64,000 bases of DNA from Patescibacteria group bacterium (GTDB lineage: Bacteria; Patescibacteriota; Minisyncoccia; Phycocordibacterales; PALSA-1337). Positions within the stretch are counted from its first letter, which is position 1; every line of letters begins with the position of its first letter. Shown here in pieces: positions 2,693 through 47,971 of this stretch. Under the pieces are notes generated by a model that searched no databases, had not been told where the DNA came from, and was given only the letters and a program-made list of their open reading frames with translations. The stretch lies in assembly GCA_024654575.1 (NCBI GenBank), contig JANLHG010000005.1, forward strand, positions 1,260-65,259, given 5' to 3'. Both the position numbers and the translations under genes were made by a program.

Positions 2693-3985
2693 TTATAAAT
2701 AAGAAAGTGGATTAAGATACGCTTTTTGAGTTGCCACCGGAATACGTATGTTTTTGCAATTTATACTATTAACCAATGGTGACACTTGTATACCTTGAGT
2801 CGCGTAAACACTAAAGTGCAAATGCGCTCCAGAAGGTCCTGGTGGAAGTACGTAGCCACTATAACCACTGTAAGCGATAATATCACCTGTTTTTACTTCT
2901 TGCCCCGCACTGACTAATTGAGATGAAAGATGTGCATACACCGTTGAAAGACCATTGTTATGCTTAACAAGAATCCATCTACCATATGAATAACAGTTTG
3001 GTAATATACCAGTATCACCTATTTCTACAATTGTTCCAGATAAAACAGTTCTAACTGGAGTACCTGTAGTTGCTCGTAAATCAATACCATTATGCCCTTT
3101 TCCATTGTAAGCTTGAGGATTTTGAGTTGCGAAATTAGTGTTACCAAAATATTGAGTAATGTGAACATTATCAAGAGGCCATTGTAAAACTCCAGCTCCG
3201 GCTTTTGGTATACTATTAGGGTCAATTGTAATCCTTAATTCCTGTTCCAAATTAGCTAAATCATCTTCAAAAGCTTTCGCAAGGGCTTTCTTATTATCAA
3301 GTATTTTTTTATAATTAGCTTCTTGATTTTTTGTTTGAGCCAATAAGTCAGCTTTCTCTTTTTTTATATCTTCTACTGATTTTGTCTGTCCTTTAAGTTG
3401 ATTACTAAAGCTCAATAATTGAACTTTATTTTTTTCTGTTTTTATCTTATTTTGTTCAAGTTGAATTTTTGTATCTTCTAAGTCTTTTATGGTTTCCCTG
3501 ATAGTTGATTGGAAACGAGTTAATTTTTCTAATTCGTTCCAAAACTCCCCCAGATCTCCAAATTCAATAAGTGTCTCAATGAGCGATTTAGACTCCTCAA
3601 CATTTATTTTATAAAAAGTTTTACTTATAATTTTAATATCTTCTTCAATACGATTACTCTTATCTCCTATATCAAGTTTTAATTGCTCTATAACGATATT
3701 AGCTGTTTGTATCTTATTTTGCGTAATTTGAATATCTTTTGATAATTTCTTTCTAGTTATTTCTAATCCATCAACTGTACCCTTCAGAGTATTGGCTTGA
3801 TTTGATATTACATCAACTTGGTCTTGATACTGAGCAATTTCTTGTTTAAGTTGATTAAGTAAAACATTCTGCTCATCTATTTTTTGTCTGAGTTCTTCCG
3901 CTTTGTCGGCATAAACATTATTTCCAAAAAATAAAATAAATGCTAATAAAACTATAGTTAATATTTTCCATTTATGATAAAACAT
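2693..3985 (-). CDS. Coiled-coil murein DD-endopeptidase, M23 (LytM) family, EnvC-like
   Basis: Has an N-terminal signal/TM segment and a long coiled-coil (Q/E/K-rich heptads). The C-terminus carries the GHNGIDL and HLHFSVY (HxH) M23 metal-binding motifs. Confidence 0.85.
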   Translation of the reverse strand: MFYHKWKILTIVLLAFILFFGNNVYADKAEELRQKIDEQNVLLNQLKQEIAQYQDQVDVISNQANTLKGTVDGLEITRKKLSKDIQITQNKIQTANIVIEQLKLDIGDKSNRIEEDIKIISKTFYKINVEESKSLIETLIEFGDLGEFWNELEKLTRFQSTIRETIKDLEDTKIQLEQNKIKTEKNKVQLLSFSNQLKGQTKSVEDIKKEKADLLAQTKNQEANYKKILDNKKALAKAFEDDLANLEQELRITIDPNSIPKAGAGVLQWPLDNVHITQYFGNTNFATQNPQAYNGKGHNGIDLRATTGTPVRTVLSGTIVEIGDTGILPNCYSYGRWILVKHNNGLSTVYAHLSSQLVSAGQEVKTGDIIAYSGYSGYVLPPGPSGAHLHFSVYATQGIQVSPLVNSINCKNIRIPVATQKAYLNPLSYL

Positions 3986-5312: not shown

Positions 5313-5765
5313 CTAATCAATCGCTGTAATTTTGAGTTTGAATTTTACTGTTTTATCTTGCACTTGAACTGTAATTTCATGTTCACCCACTTCTTTTATT
5401 GGTTTATCTAATTTGATGAATTCTGGAGAAATGATAAGTCGAGTTTGTTTGGTAATCTCTGGAGCAATTTCGGCACTATGAATCCCAGCAAAAAGATGGC
5501 CTTTCTCATTGGCTTTTCCAGCCATTTCTATAACAATACCATTCATATCGTTAAGATTCTTCAAAAGCAAGTCTTCTTGAATTTTTTTCTCTATATCTTC
5601 CTTTGCTTTTTCTACTGAAACCCTTTTTACAGCCTTTTCTGTAGCGATTTCAGCAAAACCCTTAGGTATAAGAAGATTTAAAGCATATCCATCAGAGATA
5701 TCTTTAACATCATATTTTTTACCTACTTTAGGTGTGTCTTTTAGTAAAATTATTTTCATACACAA
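5313..5765 (-). CDS. rplI: 50S ribosomal protein L9
   Basis: MKIILLKDTPKVGKKYDVKDISDGYALNLLIPKGFAE matches the L9 N-domain consensus. Confidence 0.85.
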   Translation of the reverse strand: MCMKIILLKDTPKVGKKYDVKDISDGYALNLLIPKGFAEIATEKAVKRVSVEKAKEDIEKKIQEDLLLKNLNDMNGIVIEMAGKANEKGHLFAGIHSAEIAPEITKQTRLIISPEFIKLDKPIKEVGEHEITVQVQDKTVKFKLKITAID

Positions 5766-5779
5766 TAAACCTTATCATT

Positions 5780-7018
5780 TCAATAATTCTTTAGCAACTC
5801 TAAAGCCTTATTCATTTGTGGGTCAATTTTCTTATCTATATCAGTCTGAGATATTTTAACTTCATAATCCGGCTTTAAACCTCCTTCAGAAATGGAATTA
5901 CCTTTTGGAGTAAGCCACCTTGCGACTGTTACTTTAAGAGACGTATCTGAAGTTATAGGAACAAGTTCTTGAACAGAACCTTTACCAAAGGTTTTCGTAC
6001 CAACTAACTTGACAATACCATGTTCTTGTAATGCACCTGCCAAAATCTCTGATGCTGAAGCCGAACCTCCATCAACTAAAATAATAAAATGTAAATTAGA
6101 AAAAACATTATATCCCCTACTTCTGTATATTTTATCATCACCGTTTTTACCAAAATCTTCAGTCACAACAATTTTTCCACTTGGTAAAAACCAACTCGCC
6201 ATGTCCACCGATGCTTCAAGATAACCTCCTGGATTACTACGAAGATCTAAAATCAGTTTTTGGGAACCTGATTCATAAAATTGTCTCAATGCATTTCTAA
6301 ACAGGTCAGGAGAATTAGCAGAAAAACTATATAATTTAATTACAAAAACACCATCTTTTCTTAATTCGGTGTCAATAGTTGGTAAATCAATAGTATCTCT
6401 AGTTATTTTGACATCAAACGGTGCTTTTATACCTTCACGAAAGACATTAAGAGTTACTATAGTCCCCTTTTTACCTCTAATGAAACTAACCGCATTATCC
6501 GTAGACATGTCAATTGTACTGGTAGCATTTATTTTAACAATTTTATCTCCCACCTTAATTCCAGCCTTTTCGGCAGGACTACCTTTCAAAGGAGCGACTA
6601 CTGTTAATATTTGGTCTTTCAGAGCAATCTCCATTCCAACTCCTTCAAAATTCCCAGCGATATCACTTTCAAATATTTTTGATTCTTTAGGAGGAAAAAA
6701 AACTGTATAAGGGTCACCCATTGAGCTAGCTAGTCCTTGCATAGCACCCCAAATTCTCTCTTGATCATTTGGAATTGGTTTTGAAGAAACATATTTTTCA
6801 GTTAAAATTGACCATTCTTTCCAGAATGGAGAAAGGTCTACAGAATTTATATTTGCAACATTTATTCGGTTTTTAGAACCAGCATAAGCACCGGCCATAA
6901 ATACCAAACCTAAAATCACCATCGCCACCACTACTGACGAAACATATTTCAAATATTTATTATTCATAAGTAAAAATATTATATCATATGCTATAATATT
7001 TTCTATTATGGTCATCAA
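5780..7018 (-). CDS. ctpA: Carboxyl-terminal processing protease (peptidase S41, CtpA/Prc-like) with PDZ domain
   Basis: Has an N-terminal TM segment and a PDZ-like region (GIKVGDKIVKIN). The S41 catalytic region is LRSNPGGYLEASVDMASWF. Confidence 0.85.
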   Translation of the reverse strand: MMTIIENIIAYDIIFLLMNNKYLKYVSSVVVAMVILGLVFMAGAYAGSKNRINVANINSVDLSPFWKEWSILTEKYVSSKPIPNDQERIWGAMQGLASSMGDPYTVFFPPKESKIFESDIAGNFEGVGMEIALKDQILTVVAPLKGSPAEKAGIKVGDKIVKINATSTIDMSTDNAVSFIRGKKGTIVTLNVFREGIKAPFDVKITRDTIDLPTIDTELRKDGVFVIKLYSFSANSPDLFRNALRQFYESGSQKLILDLRSNPGGYLEASVDMASWFLPSGKIVVTEDFGKNGDDKIYRSRGYNVFSNLHFIILVDGGSASASEILAGALQEHGIVKLVGTKTFGKGSVQELVPITSDTSLKVTVARWLTPKGNSISEGGLKPDYEVKISQTDIDKKIDPQMNKALELLKNY

Positions 7019-8345
7019 ACTTCACAACACATTGTCTGGAGAAAAAGAAGAATTTAAACCTCTCAATGAAGGAAAGGTTGGTATTTATAATTGTGGACCA
7101 ACAGTTTACGATATTGCACACATAGGAAATCTCAGAACTATGGTTTTTTATGACATTATCAGAAGAATATTTGAATATAATGAGTATAAAGTAGAACAAG
7201 TGATGAATATTACAGATGTTGATGATAAAACAATCCGTAAAAGTATCGAAGAAAAAATAACACTCACTGAACTAACAGAAAAATATGAAAAGCTTTTTTT
7301 TGAAGATATTGAAAAACTCAATATTATTAAACCACAAAAAATACTTTCTGCCAGAGCACATATGTCAGAAATTATAGAACTTATATCAACACTAATTAAA
7401 AATGGTTCAGCATACGAAGCGAGTGACGGAATCTATTTTAAAATTTCAAATTGTAAAAACTACGGATTACTAGCTAGATTAAAATTAGATAAACCGACTC
7501 AAGAAAGAATAGAAAATGATGAGTATGATAAAGAAAACCCTCGTGATTTTGCTTTATGGAAGTTTTATAAAGAAAATGACGGAGATGCAGTGTGGACCGC
7601 GCCCTTCGGGCGCGGTCGCCCTGGTTGGCATATTGAATGCTCAGCTATGGCTATAAAATCACTAGGAGACACGCTTGATATCCACGCTGGTGGAAGTGAT
7701 TTGATTTTTCCTCATCACACAAATGAAATCGCTCAGTCAGAATCAGCAACTAGAAAAACCTTTGTAAACTATTGGCTTCATGGAGGAATGATGAATGTTC
7801 AAAGTGACAAAATGGCGAAATCAAAAGGTAATTTTCTAAAATTAAAAGAGTTAATTGAAGAAAAAATATCACCCCTCGCATATCGTTATTGGCTTCTTAC
7901 TGCACATTATCGAACACAAATTAATTTTACTTTTGAAGCAGTTTCAGCATCTCAAACCGCATTAATAAACTTTTGTAATTATTTTATGGCATTTGGAGAA
8001 AAAAGTGGTGAAATTGATATAGATTACAATAATAAATTTATTGACTTCATAAATAACGATTTGGATATGCCTAAGGCAGTAGCTCTGGCTTGGGAATTGA
8101 TTAAAGATAAAAATATTTCAAACGAAAACAAAAAAGCTACTCTATTAAAATTTGACGAAGTATTCGGATTAAAATTAAAAGACCTAAAAATTCCTGATAA
8201 TAATGAAGAGATACCAGAAGAAATCAAGTTTTTGATTGAAGAAAGAGAAAATGCCCGCAAAGCTAAAGATTTCAAAAAATCCGACGCCCTAAGGAGTGAA
8301 ATAGAAGCTAGAGGGTATAAAGTCAAAGATATACCCTTATCTTAA
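7008..8345 (+). CDS. cysS: Cysteinyl-tRNA synthetase
   Basis: YNCGPTVYDIAHIGNLRT contains the HIGH region. RPGWHIECSAM is the Zn/cysteine-binding motif. KMAKSKGN is the KMSKS motif. Confidence 0.92.
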   Translation: MVIKLHNTLSGEKEEFKPLNEGKVGIYNCGPTVYDIAHIGNLRTMVFYDIIRRIFEYNEYKVEQVMNITDVDDKTIRKSIEEKITLTELTEKYEKLFFEDIEKLNIIKPQKILSARAHMSEIIELISTLIKNGSAYEASDGIYFKISNCKNYGLLARLKLDKPTQERIENDEYDKENPRDFALWKFYKENDGDAVWTAPFGRGRPGWHIECSAMAIKSLGDTLDIHAGGSDLIFPHHTNEIAQSESATRKTFVNYWLHGGMMNVQSDKMAKSKGNFLKLKELIEEKISPLAYRYWLLTAHYRTQINFTFEAVSASQTALINFCNYFMAFGEKSGEIDIDYNNKFIDFINNDLDMPKAVALAWELIKDKNISNENKKATLLKFDEVFGLKLKDLKIPDNNEEIPEEIKFLIEERENARKAKDFKKSDALRSEIEARGYKVKDIPLS

Positions 8346-9138: not shown

Positions 9139-10524
9139 ATGAACACCAAAACCATTCAACCTAGGAGTTTAAGAATTCCTCCACAAAATATTGATGCTGA
9201 AAAAGCAGCTCTTGGTTCTATTATGTTAAGACCTGAAGCAATGCACGATGTAGTTGATATTATTCGTGGAGAATCTTTTTATGCAGAAAAACACCGACTC
9301 ATCTGGCAAACAATGCTTGATTTACAAAGCAAGAGTTCTCCTATTGATTTACTTTCTCTTTCTTCACGACTTAAAGAAAAGGGTTTATTAGACGCAATTG
9401 GCGGAATGTCGTATCTCACAGAAATTGCAGGTTTTGTCCCCTCTTCTACAAACGCAAACCATTATGCCGAAATTGTTCAAAAAAAATATATGATGCGGAG
9501 TCTAATTAATGCTTCGGAATATATTGGAGAGTTAGGTTTTGATGAAGCAGGAGAACTTGAAGAACTTTTGGAAAAAGCGGAAAAAAGAATTTTCGAAGTG
9601 ACAAATTATTCCGGTATTCATAAGTTTATTGAACTTAAAGATACTCTAGTTGAAGCATGGGATAGACTTGACACTCTTCACAAATCTAAAGATGAAATGA
9701 GAGGTGTTTCAACTGGTTTCAAAGAATTAGACCTAAAACTTGCTGGTCTGCAAAAATCCGACCTCATTATTCTAGCTGCTCGACCTTCTATGGGAAAAAC
9801 ATCTCTAGCTCTTGATATTGCTCGAAAATCAGCCACAAATCATAATGTGCCAGTAGGAATATTTTCTCTTGAAATGAGCTCCCAACAATTAGTAGATAGA
9901 ATGCTTGCCGCAGAATCACAGGTTGATTCTTGGAAACTACGAACTGGACAGAATCTTTCAATTGAGACAGATTTCAAACATATTCGTGATGCAATGGATA
10001 AATTATCAAAAGCACCGATTTATATTGATGATCAACCCGGAAATAACATTTTAAAAATGCGTTCTGTCGCACGACGTCTTAAAAGTGAAAAAGGATTAGG
10101 TCTAATTATCGTTGATTATTTACAATTAATGGTCCCAACTCAAGCACGACATTCCGACAATCTTGTTCAGCAAGTGACAGAAATATCTCGCTCTCTTAAA
10201 AATCTAGCCAGAGAATTAGATATCCCCGTTTTAGCCCTTTCTCAACTTTCTCGAGCCGTTGAACAACGTGGAGGTAGACCTCGCCTATCGGACTTGCGAG
10301 ATTCTGGTTCTATTGAACAAGATGCGGATGTGGTAATGTTTATACATCGTGAAGATAAATATAATGAAAATTCTGAAAGACCAAATATTGCCGAAATTCT
10401 TATCGAAAAACACAGAAATGGTCCTACTGGAAAAGTAGAACTATATTTTGATGAAAAGAAAACGACTTTCCTTAGTGTAGAAAAAACAGATTTCAAAGAT
10501 TTTGATAAAGAAGGAGGATTTTAA
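9139..10524 (+). CDS. dnaB: Replicative DNA helicase DnaB
   Basis: The N-terminal domain is PPQNIDAEKAALGSIML. The RecA-like core has Walker A (ARPSMGKTSLAL) and the LIIVDYLQLM motif. Length is 461 aa, so there is no intein. Confidence 0.92.
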   Translation: MNTKTIQPRSLRIPPQNIDAEKAALGSIMLRPEAMHDVVDIIRGESFYAEKHRLIWQTMLDLQSKSSPIDLLSLSSRLKEKGLLDAIGGMSYLTEIAGFVPSSTNANHYAEIVQKKYMMRSLINASEYIGELGFDEAGELEELLEKAEKRIFEVTNYSGIHKFIELKDTLVEAWDRLDTLHKSKDEMRGVSTGFKELDLKLAGLQKSDLIILAARPSMGKTSLALDIARKSATNHNVPVGIFSLEMSSQQLVDRMLAAESQVDSWKLRTGQNLSIETDFKHIRDAMDKLSKAPIYIDDQPGNNILKMRSVARRLKSEKGLGLIIVDYLQLMVPTQARHSDNLVQQVTEISRSLKNLARELDIPVLALSQLSRAVEQRGGRPRLSDLRDSGSIEQDADVVMFIHREDKYNENSERPNIAEILIEKHRNGPTGKVELYFDEKKTTFLSVEKTDFKDFDKEGGF

Positions 10525-18256: not shown

Positions 18257-18332
18257 GCTCCGGTGTAGCTCAGCGGTAGAGCAGTCGCCTGTTAAGCGAT
18301 TGGTCGCAGGTTCGATCCCTGCCGCCGGAGCA
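18257..18332 (+). tRNA. tRNA-Asn (anticodon GTT)
   Basis: Cloverleaf by eye: acceptor TCCGGTG/CGCCGGA, D arm GCTC-AGCGGTA-GAGC, anticodon stem GTCGC/GCGAT with loop CTGTTAA, T arm GCAGG-TTCGATC-CCTGC, discriminator G73. No encoded CCA. Confidence 0.85.
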
Positions 18333-18355: not shown

Positions 18356-18395
18356 TAAGCGATTGGTCGTTGGTTCGAATCCAACCGCCGGAGCA
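18356..18395 (+). repeat. Duplicated tRNA 3' half (anticodon-loop to 3' end) with compensatory T-stem substitutions, att-like
   Basis: TAAGCGATTGGTCG-TTGG-TTCGAAT-CCAA-CCGCCGGAGCA compared with tRNA-Asn TAAGCGATTGGTCG-CAGG-TTCGATC-CCTG-CCGCCGGAGCA. T-stem pairing is preserved despite different bases. It lies 24 nt after the intact tRNA. Confidence 0.7.
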
Positions 18396-18476
18396 GTTGA
18401 CAAGTATATTTAACTATGATTAGATAACATAATAGTAGTTTTTTGACATATTTTTTGGTAGTTAGCTATTTTTCTT

Positions 18477-18927: not shown

Positions 18928-18980
18928 AAACTAAACATCCTCATTTCCTTTTCAATAACAGATCAACTAATAATTCTAAT

Positions 18981-19000
18981 CTCGTCCAACATGCGGAGTT
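18981..19000 (+). repeat. Degenerate tRNA-3'-end-like direct repeat, copy R2
   Basis: ctcgtccaacatgcggagtt, compared with the R1/tRNA segment TTCGAATCCAACCGCCGGAGCA. Confidence 0.45.
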
Positions 19001-19654: not shown

Positions 19655-19680
19655 CTCTAACTTCGTTCAACATGCGGAGC
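19655..19680 (+). repeat. Degenerate tRNA-3'-end-like direct repeat, copy R3
   Basis: ctctaacttcgttcaacatgcggagc. Confidence 0.5.
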
Positions 19681-20770: not shown

Positions 20771-20796
20771 CTCTAACTTCTTCCACCATGCGGAGC
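20771..20796 (+). repeat. Degenerate tRNA-3'-end-like direct repeat, copy R4 (with TTYGAACCTG tail motif about 45 nt downstream)
   Basis: ctctaacttcttccaccatgcggagc, then …ctaggtagggcgtttgaacctgtgg at about 20830-20850. Confidence 0.5.
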
Positions 20797-23444: not shown

Positions 23445-23478
23445 CCCTAACTTCTTCCACCATGTGGAGCAGTTGACA
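23445..23478 (+). repeat. Degenerate tRNA-3'-end-like direct repeat, copy R5, sharing the GGAGCAGTTGACAA extension with R1
   Basis: ccctaacttcttccaccatgtggagcagttgaca. Confidence 0.5.
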
Positions 23479-33792: not shown

Positions 33793-33813
33793 TTTGTGTG
33801 TTCTAGTTTCGTC

Positions 33814-34950
33814 TCAACCAACAAGTTTCCATAGAAGCTCAGTTCCTCCTTTGAAGACTTGGACTTCTCCGACTTTCTGCGGAACGACAAGCGCCCCGCG
33901 TTCGATCGTCATCATCTCCGAGCTCACTTCCATGCCATAAAGCGCGAGGAAGTTTTCGGAAAGGAACGGACCGAGATGTTCGAGTGCGTTGTCCTGGTCG
34001 AAGGTCATCGTGTAGAGCTCAACGGCCGAGGGAGCGGTGAAGATGCCAGCCGCACAGCCATAGCAGCGAGACTTTGCACTTTCATCGTGAGGAGCGGAAT
34101 CCGTTCCTGCTCCGAAGCGACGATTACCCGAAGTCACATACTGCCGGACTTTTGCACGATGCGTTTCGCGCTTCGGCACAGGCTTGCAGTAGTGGCCAGG
34201 ATTCATCCCACCCCAGAACATGGCGTTGCGATTAATCATCAGATGATGAGCAGTCACAGTCGCATGGATATCGTGATCGACTTCTGCGACGAAGTCGGCC
34301 GCTCGTCCATCGGTGAGATGTTCGAAGACCACCGGCAATCCTGGAAAGGACTTGAGGATGGGCTTGAGGTCGCGGTCCACGGAAACGCTCTCGCGATCGA
34401 ATTCGTCGACATCTTCCTCGACTGCTTCGAAGTGTCCAAGCAATGGGATTTTGTGTTTCTCCATCACCTCGAACACCGGATAGCGACCAAGAAGATTCTT
34501 CACGCCGTGCGCCGAGCCAGTGGTGCCACCCTGGCCTTTTTGATTGGCCATGTAGAGCTTCACCGCTCGCCAAACACCTTCTTCGAAACCGCGCACGACT
34601 TCTTCAGGATCGATATGATCCGTCAGATACAGCGTCATGCAAGGCACGAAGTCGTAATCCTTCTTCCAATACCATTCTTGTCCTTTCGGAGCATTAGTAT
34701 TGAAGCGTAAACTCGTCATAACTTGTTCGATCTCTTTACGGTAATCTTTCGCTTTTTCAATCGTCGTTACCGGGTCAGCAAGGTTTGGCATGATAATCGC
34801 CCCCGTTGCATGCTGTTTGAGTGTACACGGAAGAACGGTCTTGAGCATATCACCACTTCGAAGGTGAAGATGACGGTCAAACCATCGAGGTATTGTTACC
34901 GAGTTTTCTTTCATGAGTTTTCCTTTTTGATAAACGATGTGGGTTTCCAC
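33814..34950 (-). CDS. pyrC: Dihydroorotase, type II (E. coli PyrC-like); GC-rich foreign composition
   Basis: FDRHLHLRSGDMLKTVLP, AIIMPNLADPVTT, CMTLYLTDHIDPEEVVRGFEEGV, PLLGHFE, VVFEHLT, GTDSAPH and CYGCAAGIFTAPSA align motif-by-motif to E. coli PyrC. DNA is about 55% GC. Confidence 0.9.
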   Translation of the reverse strand: METHIVYQKGKLMKENSVTIPRWFDRHLHLRSGDMLKTVLPCTLKQHATGAIIMPNLADPVTTIEKAKDYRKEIEQVMTSLRFNTNAPKGQEWYWKKDYDFVPCMTLYLTDHIDPEEVVRGFEEGVWRAVKLYMANQKGQGGTTGSAHGVKNLLGRYPVFEVMEKHKIPLLGHFEAVEEDVDEFDRESVSVDRDLKPILKSFPGLPVVFEHLTDGRAADFVAEVDHDIHATVTAHHLMINRNAMFWGGMNPGHYCKPVPKRETHRAKVRQYVTSGNRRFGAGTDSAPHDESAKSRCYGCAAGIFTAPSAVELYTMTFDQDNALEHLGPFLSENFLALYGMEVSSEMMTIERGALVVPQKVGEVQVFKGGTELLWKLVG

Positions 34951-35780
34951 GGAGTCCGCAGATGAATTGCACCGAAGCCGATCGCTTTCGCGCCGAGCCT
35001 CCTAAGCTTTTCCATGTCTTCGAATTCCATGATACTTGGACCGATCACAGGAAGCGATCCTTGTTTAGCGAGAGCTTCGACTGCCGCCCAGTTGTGTTTC
35101 TGTGCCGGTTTGCCGGAGACGCCTCCGCCTCCACCACCGACTTGTTTTTCGAGCTTCGCTAAAGGGGTCTGCCCGCTGTTAGTAAAGACCGTCTTCCACG
35201 GCACGCTGTTGAGGGAAACCGCTTCCGCGATTCCGACAAGTCCGCGTGCAATAGTGAGATAGTCCTGATCAGCCGAGACTTTGACGATTACGGGGTGACG
35301 CGAAGCGCGTTTGACCGCCTTCACACTATTCACCACCATTTCTGCCTGTTCGATTGCATGGCCAGTATTCGGACACGAGACGTTGACTTCAAGCGCAACG
35401 ATATCGAAGCGATTGAGCATCTCCGCCATTTCCACCAGTTCCTTTTCATCGCCGAAAATTGATCCGGCTGTTGGGAACTTTTTGAAATCGAGTTTGGGAC
35501 CGACTTCTCGGCACCACCACTCGACACCAGGATTAGTGAGCCCAACTTTATTGACCGCTCCGCCTGGAATCAGGCGAACGCAGGTCCAAGGCTTCCACCA
35601 TCGTAGGTTTCCGATACGCGGGTTGCGCGTCAGAGATTTGATGACTACAGTGAAGAGTTCGGGCTTGATGAGACCGAGCCACACCAGTGGCCGTTCCCAA
35701 GGCCAGCCCTTGCCATCAAAGGCAAGAGCGCCGCTTGCAACCATGTATTTGAACGCATGTCCGTTTGATAATGTGATCAT
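34911..35780 (-). CDS. pyrD: Dihydroorotate dehydrogenase, class 1 (Cys active site, PyrD 1A-like); GC-rich foreign composition
   Basis: Contains NKVGLTNPGVEW, ALEVNVSCPNTGH (NxSCPN), GGGGGVSGKP and a C-terminal GFGAIHL. It overlaps pyrC by 40 nt. Confidence 0.85.
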   Translation of the reverse strand: MITLSNGHAFKYMVASGALAFDGKGWPWERPLVWLGLIKPELFTVVIKSLTRNPRIGNLRWWKPWTCVRLIPGGAVNKVGLTNPGVEWWCREVGPKLDFKKFPTAGSIFGDEKELVEMAEMLNRFDIVALEVNVSCPNTGHAIEQAEMVVNSVKAVKRASRHPVIVKVSADQDYLTIARGLVGIAEAVSLNSVPWKTVFTNSGQTPLAKLEKQVGGGGGGVSGKPAQKHNWAAVEALAKQGSLPVIGPSIMEFEDMEKLRRLGAKAIGFGAIHLRTPWKPTSFIKKENS

Positions 35781-35870
35781 AGGATCTCCGTTTGTTGATC
35801 GTTTTAAATGTTCATTTCCATTCTGACATTACCTTATCTCAAAGTTATTTAATAGTAAAGATATGTTATA

Positions 35871-38001: not shown

Positions 38002-39150
38002 TTATATGCTATTTTTTTTATGATATCTAGAGATGTTGAGGATAATGCCTACCTCTGCTAAAACTGTTACTAAAGCCGTACCACCATGACTTACAAAAAG
38101 TAAAGGAATACCAGAAAGTGGAATAATACCTATCATTGACGCAATATTCATAAATGATTCAACGACAATCAGAACTACTATTCCTACTATGAAAAAACTG
38201 CCGAAAAGATCTCCCGACCTAGTAGCGATTTTAAAACCACGAATAACAAAAAAAAGAAATAAGAAAATTAATGCAACAGATCCAACAAATCCCCACTCTT
38301 CAGCATAAACGGCAAAGATAGAATCACCGACTGGTTCTGGTAAATAATTAAATTTTTGAACACTCTGTCCGAATCCCCTTCCAAACATCCCACCAGAACC
38401 AATAGCGATCAGAGATTGTTGAATTTGATACCCTGAGTTTAGAGGGTCACTGGCGGGATTGATAAAAGTCTTAATTCTTTCCATCGCATAAGGTCTTACG
38501 AGTGCAACAGCTCCAACAAATAATAATCCCATACAAGCAATGACGCCAATATCCCTCCATTTAGCTCCAGCAGAAAAAAGCATAGCTAAACCAGAAAAAG
38601 CAATAATAACAAATGTTTTTGTATCAGATTGAGCAATAAGTATAGGGCATAAAATAATAGCAATAACTATAAAAGGCAAAAGACCAAATTTAAATTTAGT
38701 TACATTATCTTTAACACTAGCAAGCCACGTTGAAAAATAAAGAATAAATCCAAATTTCAAAAATTCTGATGGTTGAATTGTAAAAGAACCGATTGTAATC
38801 CATCTTGTGGCTCCTCCATGTTCAAATCCTAGTTTTGGAATAAAAAGTAAAAGGTTAAGTAAAATTGTGGATAAAAATATGTAAAAAGCATATCTTCTCC
38901 AAAATTTATGTGGGATTACTTTTGCACAAAGAAAAAGTCCCAGAAGTCCTAATCCGAGAGCTATGAGTTGAGTATTGGATATATTGTCAAACTTAGAATT
39001 ATCTCTAGCCAATATTCCTAATGATGCAGAAGTAAAAATAAAAAATCCAAAAATCACCAAAATCAACACCGAAAAAAGAAACGGTTTATCAACCTTTAAA
39101 AGTTTCATATGAGAAATTATAACATATTTTTTACTTGATTTTTTCCGCAA
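38002..39150 (-). CDS. ftsW: SEDS-family peptidoglycan glycosyltransferase FtsW/RodA
   Basis: About 10 TM helices with a SEDS-like pattern. Gene order is ftsW-murG. Confidence 0.85.
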   Translation of the reverse strand: MRKKSSKKYVIISHMKLLKVDKPFLFSVLILVIFGFFIFTSASLGILARDNSKFDNISNTQLIALGLGLLGLFLCAKVIPHKFWRRYAFYIFLSTILLNLLLFIPKLGFEHGGATRWITIGSFTIQPSEFLKFGFILYFSTWLASVKDNVTKFKFGLLPFIVIAIILCPILIAQSDTKTFVIIAFSGLAMLFSAGAKWRDIGVIACMGLLFVGAVALVRPYAMERIKTFINPASDPLNSGYQIQQSLIAIGSGGMFGRGFGQSVQKFNYLPEPVGDSIFAVYAEEWGFVGSVALIFLFLFFVIRGFKIATRSGDLFGSFFIVGIVVLIVVESFMNIASMIGIIPLSGIPLLFVSHGGTALVTVLAEVGIILNISRYHKKNSI

Positions 39151-39902
39151 TAAAGAGTAAAAAGATACTAGAACAAAAGAAAGGTCTTTACATGTACATA
39201 CATCAAATGGATACTCTATTCACAGAAACGGCTCGTATCGTAGTAGAACAAAAAAAAGAACATACACGCCTTGCTCTTGAAAAAGAAAAACGGAAAGTGC
39301 TAGAAAAAACAAATCGTGATAATGTAAGAAAATTAGAGATTACCAAACTCGTCAAAAATGCACAAACTAATCTTGATTTTATGACGAGAAGCCATAAAAG
39401 CAACAGGAAATTTCCTGACTATCTCACAACATTGTTTGAAGAATTTGCGATAGTTAAAAGGTGGTATGAATATGAAGTGGTGAAGGGAAAGCCAGAACCT
39501 ATGGACGAAATAACAGCTTCAGTAAAGACGAAAACAACTGAAGTGAAAGCTCAACGTCTTAGAGAAGTCTGGAAGGAAGAACTCGTACTCTCAGTTGCTA
39601 GAATACCGCAAAAAGAAGATTATGAACTGAGAAACAAATGTATTACAGAAATTGTAATAATCACAAGGAAAGCTGGTGACCTTAAAAGTAAAGTAGATTT
39701 AGAACAAAATCAAGCAACTGTAACGGTGATTAATAGGGTTATTCCAGGTCATCAAAATAACGAAAATGAATGGAAACCATGTATCCTTTATTGGGGTAAA
39801 GCACTAGATGTAGTGCTTGAAAATCTCACAACACCAGACGGAACTATCCGTCAACTCATAGAAAAATTCGGATTACCGAATGAGTGGAGAGACGAATACT
39901 GA
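39135..39902 (+). CDS. Hypothetical charged protein (start likely at the MYIHQMD Met, about 39192)
   Basis: Intact ORF followed by a strong terminator. No recognisable motif. Confidence 0.45.
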   Translation: MIFSAIKSKKILEQKKGLYMYIHQMDTLFTETARIVVEQKKEHTRLALEKEKRKVLEKTNRDNVRKLEITKLVKNAQTNLDFMTRSHKSNRKFPDYLTTLFEEFAIVKRWYEYEVVKGKPEPMDEITASVKTKTTEVKAQRLREVWKEELVLSVARIPQKEDYELRNKCITEIVIITRKAGDLKSKVDLEQNQATVTVINRVIPGHQNNENEWKPCILYWGKALDVVLENLTTPDGTIRQLIEKFGLPNEWRDEY

Positions 39903-39926: not shown

Positions 39927-39954
39927 CCCTCGCGCTTGCGCGAGGGCTTTTTTA
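39927..39954 (+). terminator. Rho-independent terminator (GC-rich perfect hairpin)
   Basis: ccctcgcgc-ttgc-gcgcgaggg followed by ctttttt. Confidence 0.7.
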
Positions 39955-39975
39955 TACATAGGAGTTTCCTATGTA
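39955..39975. repeat. Inverted repeat TACATAGGAGTTTCCTATGTA; member of a GC-hairpin plus IR composite repeat family (second copy inside dnaG)
   Basis: The same 17-nt core, TAGGAGTTTCCTATGTA, recurs at 46594-46610. Confidence 0.6.
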
Positions 39976-40437
39976 TTACCTCGTCACTGAAATCACTAGG
40001 ATTTCAATTTCTGTTGATGGGGCAGTGATGGTAATACGGTCATTCACATCTATTGCTATAGAATATTGAGTATCGTAGTCATTCACCGAAGTAAAGTGTG
40101 CACCAGAAGCACTAGGGTCAAACGGCATTGAAGCAATATAAGTAGGTACTAAACAAGGAGCGATATCAAAACCACCAGATGATTTCATTATGGTAGATGT
40201 TGCTGGGATTGTCGTGACCGTTCCACTGCATTTAAATAATCCTCTATTTTCCGACATATTTTGTCCAATAGCATTTAATATAGTTGTTACATGACTAGTT
40301 CTTTGAGAATCCCTAGCGATTTTAAATTGCCGAGATGGATTGATGGCTACAAGTACTACTCCAGCAAGTATGGCAATAATACCTATAACCACCAAAATCT
40401 CAATAAGAGTAAAACCGTCTTGCTTATTATTTTTCAT
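39976..40437 (-). CDS. Type IV pilin (prepilin with N-terminal methylation motif)
   Basis: KQDGFTLIEILVVIGIIAILAG is the class III signal peptide plus the conserved N-terminal helix. Confidence 0.8.
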   Translation of the reverse strand: MKNNKQDGFTLIEILVVIGIIAILAGVVLVAINPSRQFKIARDSQRTSHVTTILNAIGQNMSENRGLFKCSGTVTTIPATSTIMKSSGGFDIAPCLVPTYIASMPFDPSASGAHFTSVNDYDTQYSIAIDVNDRITITAPSTEIEILVISVTR

Positions 40438-45047: not shown

Positions 45048-46220
45048 TTAATAATTCCTTAATCGGTTAATATTTTCGTGTTCGCGGATTTTATCATGTG
45101 CTTTGGCTTCAATTTGACGAATTCTTTCTCGAGTAACCCCAAATTCTTTTCCCACCTCTTCAAGAGTATGAGTAATACCATCAACCAATCCATGTCTCAT
45201 TTCAAGAATTTTTCTCTCCTTCAAAGATAAATCTCCTAAAATATCCTTGACCTGATCACCTAAAATTCTACGAGAAGAATCCTGGTCTGGAGAAAGAATT
45301 TTATCATCTGAAAGGAAATCACCGAGTGTTGATTTGTCTTCACCGTCATCACCAACAGGACTTTCCAAAGAAACTGTATCCTGATCTATTTTCTCAATAT
45401 TATAAATTTTTTCAACATCAAGTCCCATTTCCGTAGCGATTTCTTCCGCTAATGGTTCTCGTCCTAAATCTTGACTAAGTCGTCGCACCACTTGTTTGTA
45501 TTTTGCAATTGTCTCAACCATATGCACCGGCACACGAATAGTTCTTGATTGGTCAGCCAAAGCTCTAGTAATAGCTTGTCTAATCCACCAAGTAGCATAA
45601 GTTGAAAATTTGTATCCTTTAGTCCAATCAAATTTATCAACAGCTTTAAAAAGACCGAGATTTCCTTCTTGAATTAAATCAAGTAAAGTTAAATCTGGAC
45701 TTCGTCCAACATATTTTTTAGCAATAGAAACAACGAGACGAAGGTTTGCACGTGCCAGTAAATTTTTTGCTTCTTCTTCTCCTTTTTGAATTCTTTTTGC
45801 TAAATCTTTTTCAACCGAAGCCGGAACAAGCGGATATTGTCCGATTTCCTTTAAATACATTTGAATAGAATCATATGCTGAATCACTTTTACCATAACTA
45901 TACTTTTTAGAAACGGGTTCCTCAGGTTCTATATCTAAAATACCACCACCTTCAAGAATATCTACTCCAGCTTCTGCTAATTTATTATAGAGATCATCAA
46001 GACCATTTATATTTTCTTCAATCGTTGGAAAATCTCTTAAAATCTCATCATAAGTAACAAATCCCCTCTCTTTTCCTTTCTCAAGTAATTTTTCTGATTT
46101 TACACTAAACTCTTTAGCTTTACTTAAAACTGCTTTTTTAGGCCTAATCTTAGCCTTATTTTTCTTTTTTTTGATAACTTTGACCTTTTTTTTTGGAACC
46201 CTTTTTTTAGATTTCTTCAT
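45048..46220 (-). CDS. rpoD: RNA polymerase sigma-70 factor RpoD
   Basis: [24 protein letters not shown] is region 2.4/3.0. Region 4.2 is an HTH. A Lys-rich N-terminal tail is present. The gene sits in a dnaG-rpoD tandem. Confidence 0.9.
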
Positions 46221-46237
46221 ATGTAAGTAATACTATA

Positions 46238-47971
46238 CTATCTTTTCTTCAATAATTCAATACGAGATGATAACTCTTGACATTCCTCAAGAATTTTTAG
46301 TGCTTGTTCAGAATCTTTTTTCTTTTCTGCCGAAGCAAGTTCAAACATTTTTTTACCAAATAATTGTTTTAAATGTTCCAATTCAAAATTACACAAAAGT
46401 TCCTCAATTTCTTTTGTAAGATTTTTTTGATTTGAATAAGTTATTTCGGCTTGAAATATCATTTCGTTTTTTTCTGTCTCCAATATTTTTATATTTTCAA
46501 AAAAATCTTTTCCAAGCAAAGAAATTATTTTATTTTTAATTTCTTTTATGTCCAATGTTGGCTCTTTCATCTTTTCCTGCCAAAAAATTATACCTAGGAG
46601 TTTCCTATGTATAGAATTTTTGGGGCGATTATCTGCCCCGCCCGCTTGAGCGGGCGGGGCTATCATTTTCGGTATTTTTTTCAAATCTTCCCAAATAGCA
46701 TCTTCGCTAATCCCAGTTTTATTATGAATCGTTTTCACAAAATGTGATTGTTCCATATTACTTGATAAAACTGCAACGAGTGGAAGTACTTTTTCTTTTA
46801 TTCCTTTTGTTATTTTTAATTGGTCAGCTGTTTCTTTCACAATCCTATCTATATTAAAATCAATAATATTTTTTGAATTTTTGATAACATCTTTCCATTC
46901 AGTTGGATTAGCTAGTATAAAATCAGCGGGGTCTTTTCCTGATGGAACAGTAGCAATTTTAATATCCATTCCCAAAGAAAGTCCGATGATAGCTGACCGT
47001 TCGGTGGCATTAAGTCCAGCGTTATCAGCATCAAAAGCCAAAATCATATTATGAGAAAGTCGATTGATAATTCCAAGATTATTTACAGCATTTTCTCTCG
47101 TCATTAACGAATCAGTTAATGCCGTACCCGAAACCGCAACGGTATTTTTATAACCAGCTTGATGAGACATAATAAGGTCCATTTGCCCTTCCACTAAGAT
47201 TGAAAAATTTAATTTTCTAATATGACTTTTTGCCTTATCAATTCCATAAAGAACATTGCTCTTATTAAAAAGTTCAGTGTCTGGACTATTTAAATATTTA
47301 GCTGATTTGTCGTCATCAACTAAAATCCTACCAGAAAAAGCAATTACTCTTCCCCCACTATCCATAATAGGAAACATAATTCTGCCCCGAAAACGATCAT
47401 AATGGCCTGCCTGCGCAGGCGGGCCTTTTTCTGTTTTTTTAGTCAGTCCCACTTTTTCAATATCATTATCGCTATATCCCTTACTTCTCAAGTGGGTGTG
47501 TAATTTACGCCATTCATCTGGAATAAAACCAATTCTAAATTCTTTTATGGTTTTATCTACTAATCCGCGATTTTGAAGATATTTTTTTGCATCTGGATAA
47601 ATATTTAATAAACTTTCAAAAAACTTACATGCTTCTTCCATAATATTATAAAGCCGTTCTTTTTCTGTTTTAACCTGTGGATTTTCATGAATAATTTCCA
47701 CACCCGCCCGTCCTGCCAACATTTTCAAAGCCCCCATAAAATCCAACCCTTCAAAATTCTGCACGAATTCAAAAATATCACCTTTTGCTCCACATCCGAA
47801 ACAATAATAACTTCCCCGTTCAGGCGATACAAAAAAACTAGGAGTTTTCTCATTATGAAAAGGACATTTTCCTTTCAAATTCGCCCCCGCCCGCTCAAGT
47901 TTTATATATGATTCAACAACATCGACAATAGAAAGTCGCTGTTTTATTTGCTCTACGGTATTAGAAGCCAT
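46238..47971 (-). CDS. dnaG: DNA primase DnaG (contains two in-frame GC-rich palindromic insertions encoding PPAQAG)
   Basis: The Zn ribbon is CPFHNEKTPSFFVS…CFGCG. The Toprim region is ILVEGQMD…FDADNAG. Confidence 0.9.
   Translation of the reverse strand: MASNTVEQIKQRLSIVDVVESYIKLERAGANLKGKCPFHNEKTPSFFVSPERGSYYCFGCGAKGDIFEFVQNFEGLDFMGALKMLAGRAGVEIIHENPQVKTEKERLYNIMEEACKFFESLLNIYPDAKKYLQNRGLVDKTIKEFRIGFIPDEWRKLHTHLRSKGYSDNDIEKVGLTKKTEKGPPAQAGHYDRFRGRIMFPIMDSGGRVIAFSGRILVDDDKSAKYLNSPDTELFNKSNVLYGIDKAKSHIRKLNFSILVEGQMDLIMSHQAGYKNTVAVSGTALTDSLMTRENAVNNLGIINRLSHNMILAFDADNAGLNATERSAIIGLSLGMDIKIATVPSGKDPADFILANPTEWKDVIKNSKNIIDFNIDRIVKETADQLKITKGIKEKVLPLVAVLSSNMEQSHFVKTIHNKTGISEDAIWEDLKKIPKMIAPPAQAGGADNRPKNSIHRKLLGIIFWQEKMKEPTLDIKEIKNKIISLLGKDFFENIKILETEKNEMIFQAEITYSNQKNLTKEIEELLCNFELEHLKQLFGKKMFELASAEKKKDSEQALKILEECQELSSRIELLKKR

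Follow-up and report, generated by a model that had tools for sequence, protein, structure and literature searches.

The described system closest to the DNA considered here is REP/RAYT (repetitive extragenic palindromic sequences with a REP-associated tyrosine transposase; REPtron, REPIN; PMC3733652), and the locus in question is dnaG, the DNA primase gene (46238-47971, minus strand, 577 aa), in a 64,000-nucleotide stretch from an uncultured, ultra-small member of the candidate phyla radiation (CPR)/Patescibacteria. This whole stretch is referred to as the window and is AT-rich, with 33.5% GC across its length. A 70-bp interval of dnaG holds two unrelated palindromes, one AT-rich (46590-46612) and one GC-rich (46635-46660), both in frame, and the reading frame runs uninterrupted through both (local peptide KMIAPPAQAGGADNRPKNSIHRKLLGI), as the initial annotation had stated. 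As in REP/RAYT, the AT-rich palindrome is a short repeat with many near-identical, dispersed copies, mostly outside genes and downstream of them, some of which form inverted doublets, and inverted copies flank a gene for a Y1/HUH transposase. As with intragenic REPs, many of which are known from replication and repair genes (PMC3733652), occasional copies are in frame, notably in genes of this kind, in linkers and loops. The differences are that the present repeat is AT-rich and without the unpaired 5' GTAG/CGTC tag, that its probable host is a CPR bacterium, that its transposase scores below the NCBIfam cut-off for RAYT (40.7 against 80) and that the dnaG copy, unlike intragenic REPs, is a collinear replacement of native codons and not an added insert. 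Two of the Rickettsia palindromic elements (RPEs), RPE-4 and RPE-6, are themselves CGTC-type REPs (PMC3733652). Palindromic repeats inside essential genes are a known phenomenon, of which the dnaG case is a new example, and no report pairing RAYT with CPR/Patescibacteria was found in the literature searched.

The RPEs, to which the initial annotation had likened the locus, are also in-frame palindromic repeats that are tolerated in the housekeeping genes of a reduced, AT-rich genome. Classical RPE-1 is about 100-150 bp long and adds a segment of peptide, whereas the dnaG pieces measure 23 and 26 nt and bring no net gain in length, and the GC-rich palindrome is not a member of a repeated family; added peptide of the RPE type occurs only at a further GC-rich hairpin of dnaG (18 nt, described below). 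The parallel therefore holds in that the repeat family occurs in frame inside genes (mnmA) and does not carry over to the linker, where no peptide was added; as an analogy with RPEs and intragenic REPs it is judged apt, given that a dispersed family lies in frame in genes and that the hairpin is a feature of the nucleic acid, not a by-product of the peptide. The GC clusters of yeast mitochondria likewise stand as GC-rich palindromes in very AT-rich surroundings, and some are in frame in a coding gene, but they form multi-copy mobile families with target-site preferences, and the GC-rich palindrome in the dnaG linker is single-copy in all the sequence examined. With template-switch hairpins and quasipalindrome correction (Monttinen and Loytynoja 2022, PMC8794818) the latter palindrome shares perfect stems, multi-base changes in two arms, a fixed position, fast turnover of the stem and extension of the palindrome by flanking pairs; these hairpins were described for RNA genes and mutational hotspots, whereas here the sequence is coding and the changes in the peptide are mirrored, P to F being paired with G to N.

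The AT-rich repeat in dnaG and its dispersed family

The observation is real and non-random. The REP-like 23-mer of dnaG (46590-46612, minus strand) has 22/23 identity to the consensus ATACATAGGAGTTTCCTATGTAT, and TAGGAGTTTCCTATGTA is present both at 46595-46611 and at 39959-39975. The initial annotation had reported an inverted repeat shared with a copy at 39.9 kb; the match proved longer than claimed, with 24/25 nt identical between 39952-39976 and 46588-46612, which is the sole such pair within the window and which arose in 0/20 Markov simulations. The 23 nt translate as I454-I461 (IHRKLLGI), with which the first helix of the DnaG C-terminal domain opens; in the AlphaFold model this helix begins at residue 454, exactly where the REP-like codons start. 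The motif S-I-x-R-K-L-x-G-I-x-x-W-Q-E is kept in every ortholog of a 30-sequence DnaG alignment, and the repeat is aligned codon-for-codon with the native IxRKLxGI, eight codons being replaced with zero indels. The lone mismatch to the repeat is GGT in place of TGT, which keeps the invariant Gly. Codons in the patch include AGG, which makes up 9% of Arg codons here, and CTC and CTA, the rarity of which was estimated and not tabulated. The segment had been taken for an insertion, a view that the alignment contradicts: there is no net gain, and the window's linker is not longer but shorter than that of most orthologs (36 residues, counted by hand, between the two flanking conserved Trp, against 44 in the ortholog P0004).

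Comparison with relatives places the replacement within a narrow clade. The 23 nt are identical among the window, L001, L002 and L112 (L-numbers denote fetched loci of relatives and metagenomes, 1.18 Mb in all), each with 22/23 matches to the repeat, whereas the orthologous nucleotides in ~30 other Patescibacteria dnaG genes match it at 7-16 of 23 positions only. The 58%-identical outgroup L119 has a 16/23 match in which the CTAGGTAT end is already present, and L003 has 11/23 identity at the orthologous codons; no other fetched dnaG or cysS locus (L003-L086) has a REP-like match at four mismatches or fewer. In a scan of genome contigs, the relatives among the matches listed were at most 54% identical. 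A constraint on the nucleotides of the IHRKLLGI codons, considered from the comparison of the window with L001, was rejected, since the two share further identical stretches of 20-32 nt.

An exact-pattern scan of metagenome contigs with ATACMTAGGAGTTTCCTAKGTAT returned 32 contigs, mostly from groundwater assemblies and with 29-43% GC, which are probably CPR. These contain 51 copies of the 23-mer, 35 of them perfect, and nearly all are intergenic and in unrelated contexts; a search of viral contigs for the repeat gave zero matches. The ends of the repeat, ATAC...GTAT, are mutually paired, and a few copies terminate in GTAG. Inverted doublets with arms of 22-23 bp are present in L092, L100, L101 and L116, and clusters in L109. 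In L091, L108 and L115 an inverted pair ~700 bp apart stands around a 211-aa gene (in L091 the repeats at 2887 and 3559 bracket the gene at 2902-3537), and this gene adjoins the repeat in 11 of the 32 loci. Its product matches Pfam Y1_Tnp (IS200-like) at 35 bits against a cut-off of 23, and its best NCBIfam match, at the sub-threshold score given above, is REP_Tyr_transpos (REP-associated tyrosine transposase). An HUH motif (NHFHF) and a YIHLNP motif were spotted by eye, and a PDB sequence search with the transposase found nothing significant. Judged by these sequence matches, the inverted repeat shared with the 39.9-kb copy is a member of a dispersed REP-like family linked to a RAYT-type transposase.

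The family also enters coding sequence elsewhere, as in L088 and L117, where a REP doublet is in frame within mnmA and contributes to the peptide ATGHYVQVGEA-KYIGVSYVLVNTQETPMY-LSKGVDPSKDQSYF. This gene (tRNA 2-thiouridylase; L088 48-665, L117 360-977) holds three in-frame palindromic segments, of which the doublet is one; the second, CCCTCTCCTT-gtaa-AAGGAGAGGG, encodes PQPSPCKGEGG in an interdomain linker and the third, ACCCCGCCT-atattaa-AGGCGGGGT, encodes NPAFNIGGV. A recurrent hairpin, TGTGCAACATCCGATGTTGCACA followed by AATGTTGCACAAAA, travels with the REP, and a CTTGG...CCAAG(T) stem-loop family with variable upper stems is also found near REP copies; such companion hairpins, present in L090, L099, L106, L107, L111 and L116, may belong to a larger element or to a non-coding RNA. 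In L029, a Patescibacteria contig of 24% GC, intergenic GC palindromes at 5726-5747, 5847-5866 and 10287-10306 are preceded by GTAG and resemble classical GTAG-tagged REPs; one example, GTAG-TGGCCAGCCATGGCTGGCCA, occurs twice, and a repeated AT-rich 35-nt leader precedes each palindrome.

Within the window the canonical copy (39954-39976, 23/23, ATACATAGGA-GTT-TCCTATGTAT) is intergenic and has 1 nt in common with the stop codon of the pilin gene at 39976-40437 (minus strand), the last of the pilins; it lies where the block with dnaG ends. At a distance of 7 nt lies an intrinsic terminator hairpin (39927-39946, plus strand, CCCTCGCG-cttg-CGCGAGGG and then CTTTTTT), which serves the plus-strand open reading frame (ORF) at 39135-39902. 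This ORF is an orphan: a search of 5.8 billion proteins matched nothing but the ORF itself, it contains no Pfam domain, and it offers no ortholog by which the 39.9-kb locus could be compared in relatives.

GC-rich palindromes in dnaG and cysS

The GC-rich palindrome of the linker (site 2, 46635-46660, minus strand) is perfect over 26 nt, as the initial annotation had it, and reads GCCCCGCCCGC-TTGA-GCGGGCGGGGC, with a geometry of 12+2+12 nt and, in RNA form, an 11-bp stem with a UCAA loop. Folding, which the initial annotation had proposed for the mRNA, identified it as the most stable local hairpin of the 64-kb window (-28 kcal/mol, sliding 36-nt fold), with a z of about -6.3 within dnaG, and 0/100 shuffles matched it. 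It is made up of rare codons and translates as A438-A446 (APPAQAGGA), the opening part of the interdomain linker, beyond the Zn_ribbon_DnaG (residues 3-95), DNAG_N (123-248) and Toprim (258-352) domains; in the AlphaFold model the predicted local distance difference test score (pLDDT) is <50 at residues 437-452, which span the hairpin-encoded segment. No second copy exists in the window or in the 1.18 Mb of fetched loci. An Rfam scan of the whole window returned two tRNAs only and no curated RNA family at the palindromes, and no GTAG/CGTC tag was seen beside the window's GC palindromes. The hairpin had been described as terminator-like, but on the sense strand neither dnaG hairpin has the U-tract of an intrinsic terminator, which carries a caution for annotation, namely that intragenic terminator-like hairpins in AT-rich genomes need not be terminators. 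A programmed -1 frameshift at an A7 run upstream of the hairpin was also considered and rejected, the spacer being 15 nt and the run unconserved in L001.

Where the initial annotation had allowed that relatives might encode a homologous peptide without palindromy, the opposite was found. At the identical site L001 and L002 (84% and 81% identity) carry GGCCCCGTTCGCC-GT-GGCGAACGGGGCC, which encodes MAPFAVANGA and is again a palindrome. Comparison of the window with these two over 13 pairs gave nine that are invariant, three with two-sided changes, none with a one-sided change and one outer pair gained, and the symmetry covers the innermost pair beside the 2-nt centre, a pair that is impossible in an RNA hairpin. 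The palindrome is kept and the linker peptide is not (PPAQAGG in the window, PFAVANG in L001/L002). Where residues are conserved, the window and L001 have a codon identity of 0.65, so that the stem pairs change at approximately the neutral rate. In L003 (65% identity) the linker site has a weaker, bulged hairpin whose outer stem displays third-position covariation (GCC/GGG against GCG/GGC); in L119 the hairpin is absent, as it is from most other Patescibacteria dnaG genes. Conservation throughout Patescibacteria dnaG is accordingly rejected, the strong form being restricted to the window's clade, and a recurrent weak hairpin near residue 322 in many orthologs is a by-product of the toprim DxDxAG motif. 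The linker hairpin was already there before the lineages of the window, L001 and L002 diverged, and L003 probably has it in a weaker form; it appears to be older than the REP-like patch, given that L003 has the hairpin but only 11/23 REP identity.

A second GC-rich hairpin in dnaG (site 1, 47404-47425, minus strand), which the initial annotation had overlooked, reads GGCCCGCCTGCGCAGGCAGGCC on the sense strand, and its stem has a single C.A mismatch. The encoded residues, G183-H190 (GPPAQAGH), fall in a low-confidence beta-hairpin loop of the AlphaFold model. This site is an 18-nt insertion relative to L003 and L119, and L001/L002 hold a different GC hairpin in the same place (PARPDGGGG). The gene call for the dnaG ortholog of L002 (assembly GCA_038077855) is broken into two ORFs, 1-263 and 274-1563, at a point ~300 nt upstream of where the site-1 hairpin lies; this may reflect a frameshift, a pseudogene or else an error of assembly. 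Near-identical copies of GCCCGCCTGCGCAGGCAGGC are read in frame in recJ (SLSAQTGE, L106) and in a gene that resembles holB (DLPAQAGK, L094), and another is intergenic in L100; a 'PAQAG' hairpin that recurs in replication genes is thereby hinted at. The CCTGCCTGCGCAGGCAGG core is, however, also present in 33 mostly GC-rich viral contigs, and given how common it is there the GC 'PAQAG' core is unproven as a specific family; the site-1 core may be no more than a GC-rich palindrome that is favoured, with a harmless reading frame that survives. In other metagenome contigs, in-frame GC-rich palindromes of housekeeping genes were seen at L094 4497-4516 and L109 1351-1377 (holB-like), at L106 2309-2370 (recJ) and at L105 9047-9069 (class-V aminotransferase); these contigs are probably CPR, several of the palindromes are in replication genes and several are PAQAG-like, in the same reading frame.

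The adjacency of the two palindromes at the DnaG linker raises the possibility, implied by the initial annotation, that AT repeat and GC hairpin are one composite mobile element of ~70 bp that was inserted in frame in the manner of the Rickettsia RPEs. The AT repeat does come from a family of mobile type that is in frame elsewhere, the 39.9-kb copy is also adjoined by a GC hairpin, and the hairpin at site 1 is a true insertion of 18 nt. Nevertheless, this is improbable for several reasons: first, no net insertion is present and the linker is shorter than that of most orthologs. Second, the IHRKLLGI codons are collinear with a motif that is conserved in all orthologs. Third, the two loci have their GC hairpins on opposite flanks of the repeat, spaced from it by 7 nt at 39.9 kb and by 22 nt in dnaG and unrelated in sequence, and the GC palindrome of dnaG is single-copy in the window and the fetched loci. 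Finally, the hairpin in L003, where REP identity is so low, suggests that the parts differ in age. By collinearity, opposite arrangement and differing ages, a composite inserted element is largely refuted.

The dnaG palindrome is not the only one of its kind in the window. In cysS (7008-8345) a perfect 10-bp GC hairpin (7595-7617, plus strand, GACCGCGCCC-TTC-GGGCGCGGTC) lies within the conserved WTAPFGRGRPGWHIECS motif, where rare-codon choice alone creates it, with no insertion, each third codon position of the stem being complementary to its partner. In L084/L086 the hairpin displays A-T to G-C covariation, a Thr/Ala change being paired with GGT/GGC, and in L085 (70% identity) it has one mismatch and retains 5/6 of the stem's GC third positions. 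The intergenic terminators of L084, a sister contig, are at the window's positions but with other stem sequences, of which one again forms a perfect palindrome and the other is off by one mismatch. The cysS covariation and the replaced L084 stems suggest that rapid, largely symmetric turnover of hairpins is general in the window's lineage.

The expected number of such palindromes was obtained from a null in which the codons of 63 ORFs were resampled synonymously, a GC-rich palindrome being a stem of at least 9 bp with at least 7 GC pairs. The null predicts 0.04 GC-rich coding palindromes per window, whereas the actual number is two, that of dnaG site 2 and that of cysS, and 0/100 resamples reached it; for AT-rich coding palindromes one was observed against about 3.1 expected, so there is no excess. 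It might be argued that a Pro/Ala/Gly-rich peptide yields palindromes of its own accord and that the likeness to REPs is coincidental: Ala, Gly and Pro codons are mutually complementary, the toprim DxDxAG hairpin of many orthologs is an example driven by the peptide, and the CCTGCCTGCGCAGGCAGG core recurs in viral contigs. This is scarcely credible, and chance or a peptide by-product is refuted by the resampling, by the absence of any 24/25 pair from the simulations, by the two-sided changes and by a 22/23 REP match, partly in rare codons, that is an outlier against the ortholog range; the palindrome is, moreover, conserved although the peptide is not.

Both dnaG hairpins might alternatively act on the other strand, as antisense terminators that stop plus-strand transcription into dnaG. 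A consensus scan flags both on the plus strand, each followed by a T-rich tract, and region-wide it finds 8 sites against 1.5 expected from shuffles; site 1 is fully paired on the plus strand only, where its mismatch becomes G.U, and is followed there by TTTTTCTGTTTTTTT. That such sites are terminators is nevertheless very improbable, given that ~25% of antisense positions in dnaG pass the T-tract criterion owing to abundant Lys codons, that the T-tracts in question are encoded by a conserved Lys-rich peptide, that the tails in L001 are poor and that the cysS hairpin is without a T-tract on either strand.

Origin and maintenance of the palindromes

The likeliest reading is that the dnaG elements are palindromes at the level of DNA that the gene tolerates, and that they are two independent elements, a REP-derived patch and a self-symmetrising hairpin; the chance that this is correct is put at about even. 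A short templated event, of gene-conversion or template-switch type, would have copied a genomic REP over native codons that were already ~16/23 similar, and selection at the protein level would have retained the Gly at the position of the mismatch. At the GC palindrome, arm-to-arm template switching during replication would keep the stem perfect, and the unconstrained linker peptide would passively follow each change of the palindrome, from which the pair PPAQAGG and PFAVANG would result. The hairpin at 47404 and that of cysS may be due to the same process. The DnaG protein would need neither element, tolerance being due to location, and any effect on the dnaG-rpoD mRNA (pausing, exonuclease protection) would be secondary at most. 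Template switching is known to create and maintain perfect stems (PMC8794818), and it is favoured here given the symmetric changes, the near-neutral rate of the stem and the symmetry of an innermost pair that RNA cannot form, together with the lack of a conserved loop or sequence and the occurrence of similar hairpins in unrelated loops (two in mnmA, others in the holB-like gene, recJ and the aminotransferase gene).

The main rival is a selected mRNA structure, in which the GC stem-loop, alone or together with the REP-like one, would tune the expression of dnaG and rpoD, the latter gene (45048-46220) lying 17 nt downstream of the former. Variants of this proposal are a rare-codon hairpin that slows ribosomes at a domain boundary, a barrier to 3'-5' exonucleases and a processing landmark that would separate the expression of dnaG from that of rpoD, a role that REPs play in E. 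coli operons. In the classical rpsU-dnaG-rpoD operon dnaG expression is low, partly by means of rare codons, which counts in favour of such a role. Consistent with it are a hairpin position that is kept, with two-sided changes, in orthologs of 65-84% identity, the strength of the fold, its formation by rare codons, an excess of coding palindromes that is confined to GC-rich ones in a 33% GC genome, and the 5/6 GC third positions kept in the 70%-identical cysS ortholog. A selected mRNA role is nonetheless considered rather unlikely, if possible. Neither loop nor sequence is conserved and the symmetry extends to a pair with no counterpart in RNA; furthermore, the perfect hairpins contain no G.U and two of the three imperfect ones have C.A on the sense strand. 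Comparable hairpins are found at unrelated places (the cysS motif, mnmA loops, holB, recJ) with no position in common with respect to the ends of genes, and the linker hairpin is absent from most other Patescibacteria dnaG genes.

The proposal of tolerated DNA-level palindromes has evidence against it as well. With no more than three or four members of the clade sequenced, the covariation comes from few independent events, and the ancestral IxRKLxGI codons are deduced from two outgroups. A RAYT gene is absent from the 64-kb window, which holds a single canonical REP, and the repeat is without the unpaired 5' tag of classical REPs. The template-switch event is deduced from symmetry with no formal reconstruction, and AT-rich coding palindromes are not in excess; template switching alone leaves the persistence of GC-only palindromes in a 33% GC genome unexplained, which leaves room for selection on stability.

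The repeats document a REP/RAYT-type family in groundwater bacteria, probably ultra-small ones. If the proposal of tolerated palindromes is correct, a repeat of this kind can overwrite codons for a conserved helix of an essential protein and leave the length of the protein unchanged. The linker would be a natural case of symmetric evolution of a coding hairpin, accompanied by a mirror-image change in the peptide, and what is at stake is whether 'compensatory' covariation is to be read as selection or as template switching. How the numerous small insertions of CPR proteins arose is a further question on which these palindromes bear. A broader and distinctly doubtful conjecture is that hairpin DNA in these CPR, comprising both the AT-rich REP/RAYT repeats and the PAQAG-type GC palindromes, regularly supplies lineage-specific loops and linkers of housekeeping proteins, maybe with a bias to replication genes, and is kept by an action on DNA or mRNA; the possible bias is based on dnaG (three segments), the holB-like gene and recJ. 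Were this so, mobile or self-templating palindromes would be tied to protein evolution and to the control of replication genes in ultra-small genomes.

Gene order and further features of the window

On the minus strand the block runs in the order ABC-F ATPase, dnaG, rpoD, pilB, pilC and pilins and ends at 39976. An island of ~2 kb at 33800-35850 has 52% GC against 33% for the genome; strong local folds are numerous there and both strands have long, overlapping open frames, so that the segment is possibly foreign DNA. A tRNA-Asn at 18259-18331 is followed, 25 nt on, by an 85%-identical duplicate of its 3' half (18356-18396), which is reminiscent of the att-site remnant of an integrated element. 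Just downstream of this duplicate lies a region with a repeated 24-nt motif, TCTAAC(T)TC.T.C.ACCATGCGGAG, of which there are four intergenic copies (18975-18998, 19656-19679, 20772-20795 and 23446-23469) with 75-88% identity, each just beyond a small ORF.

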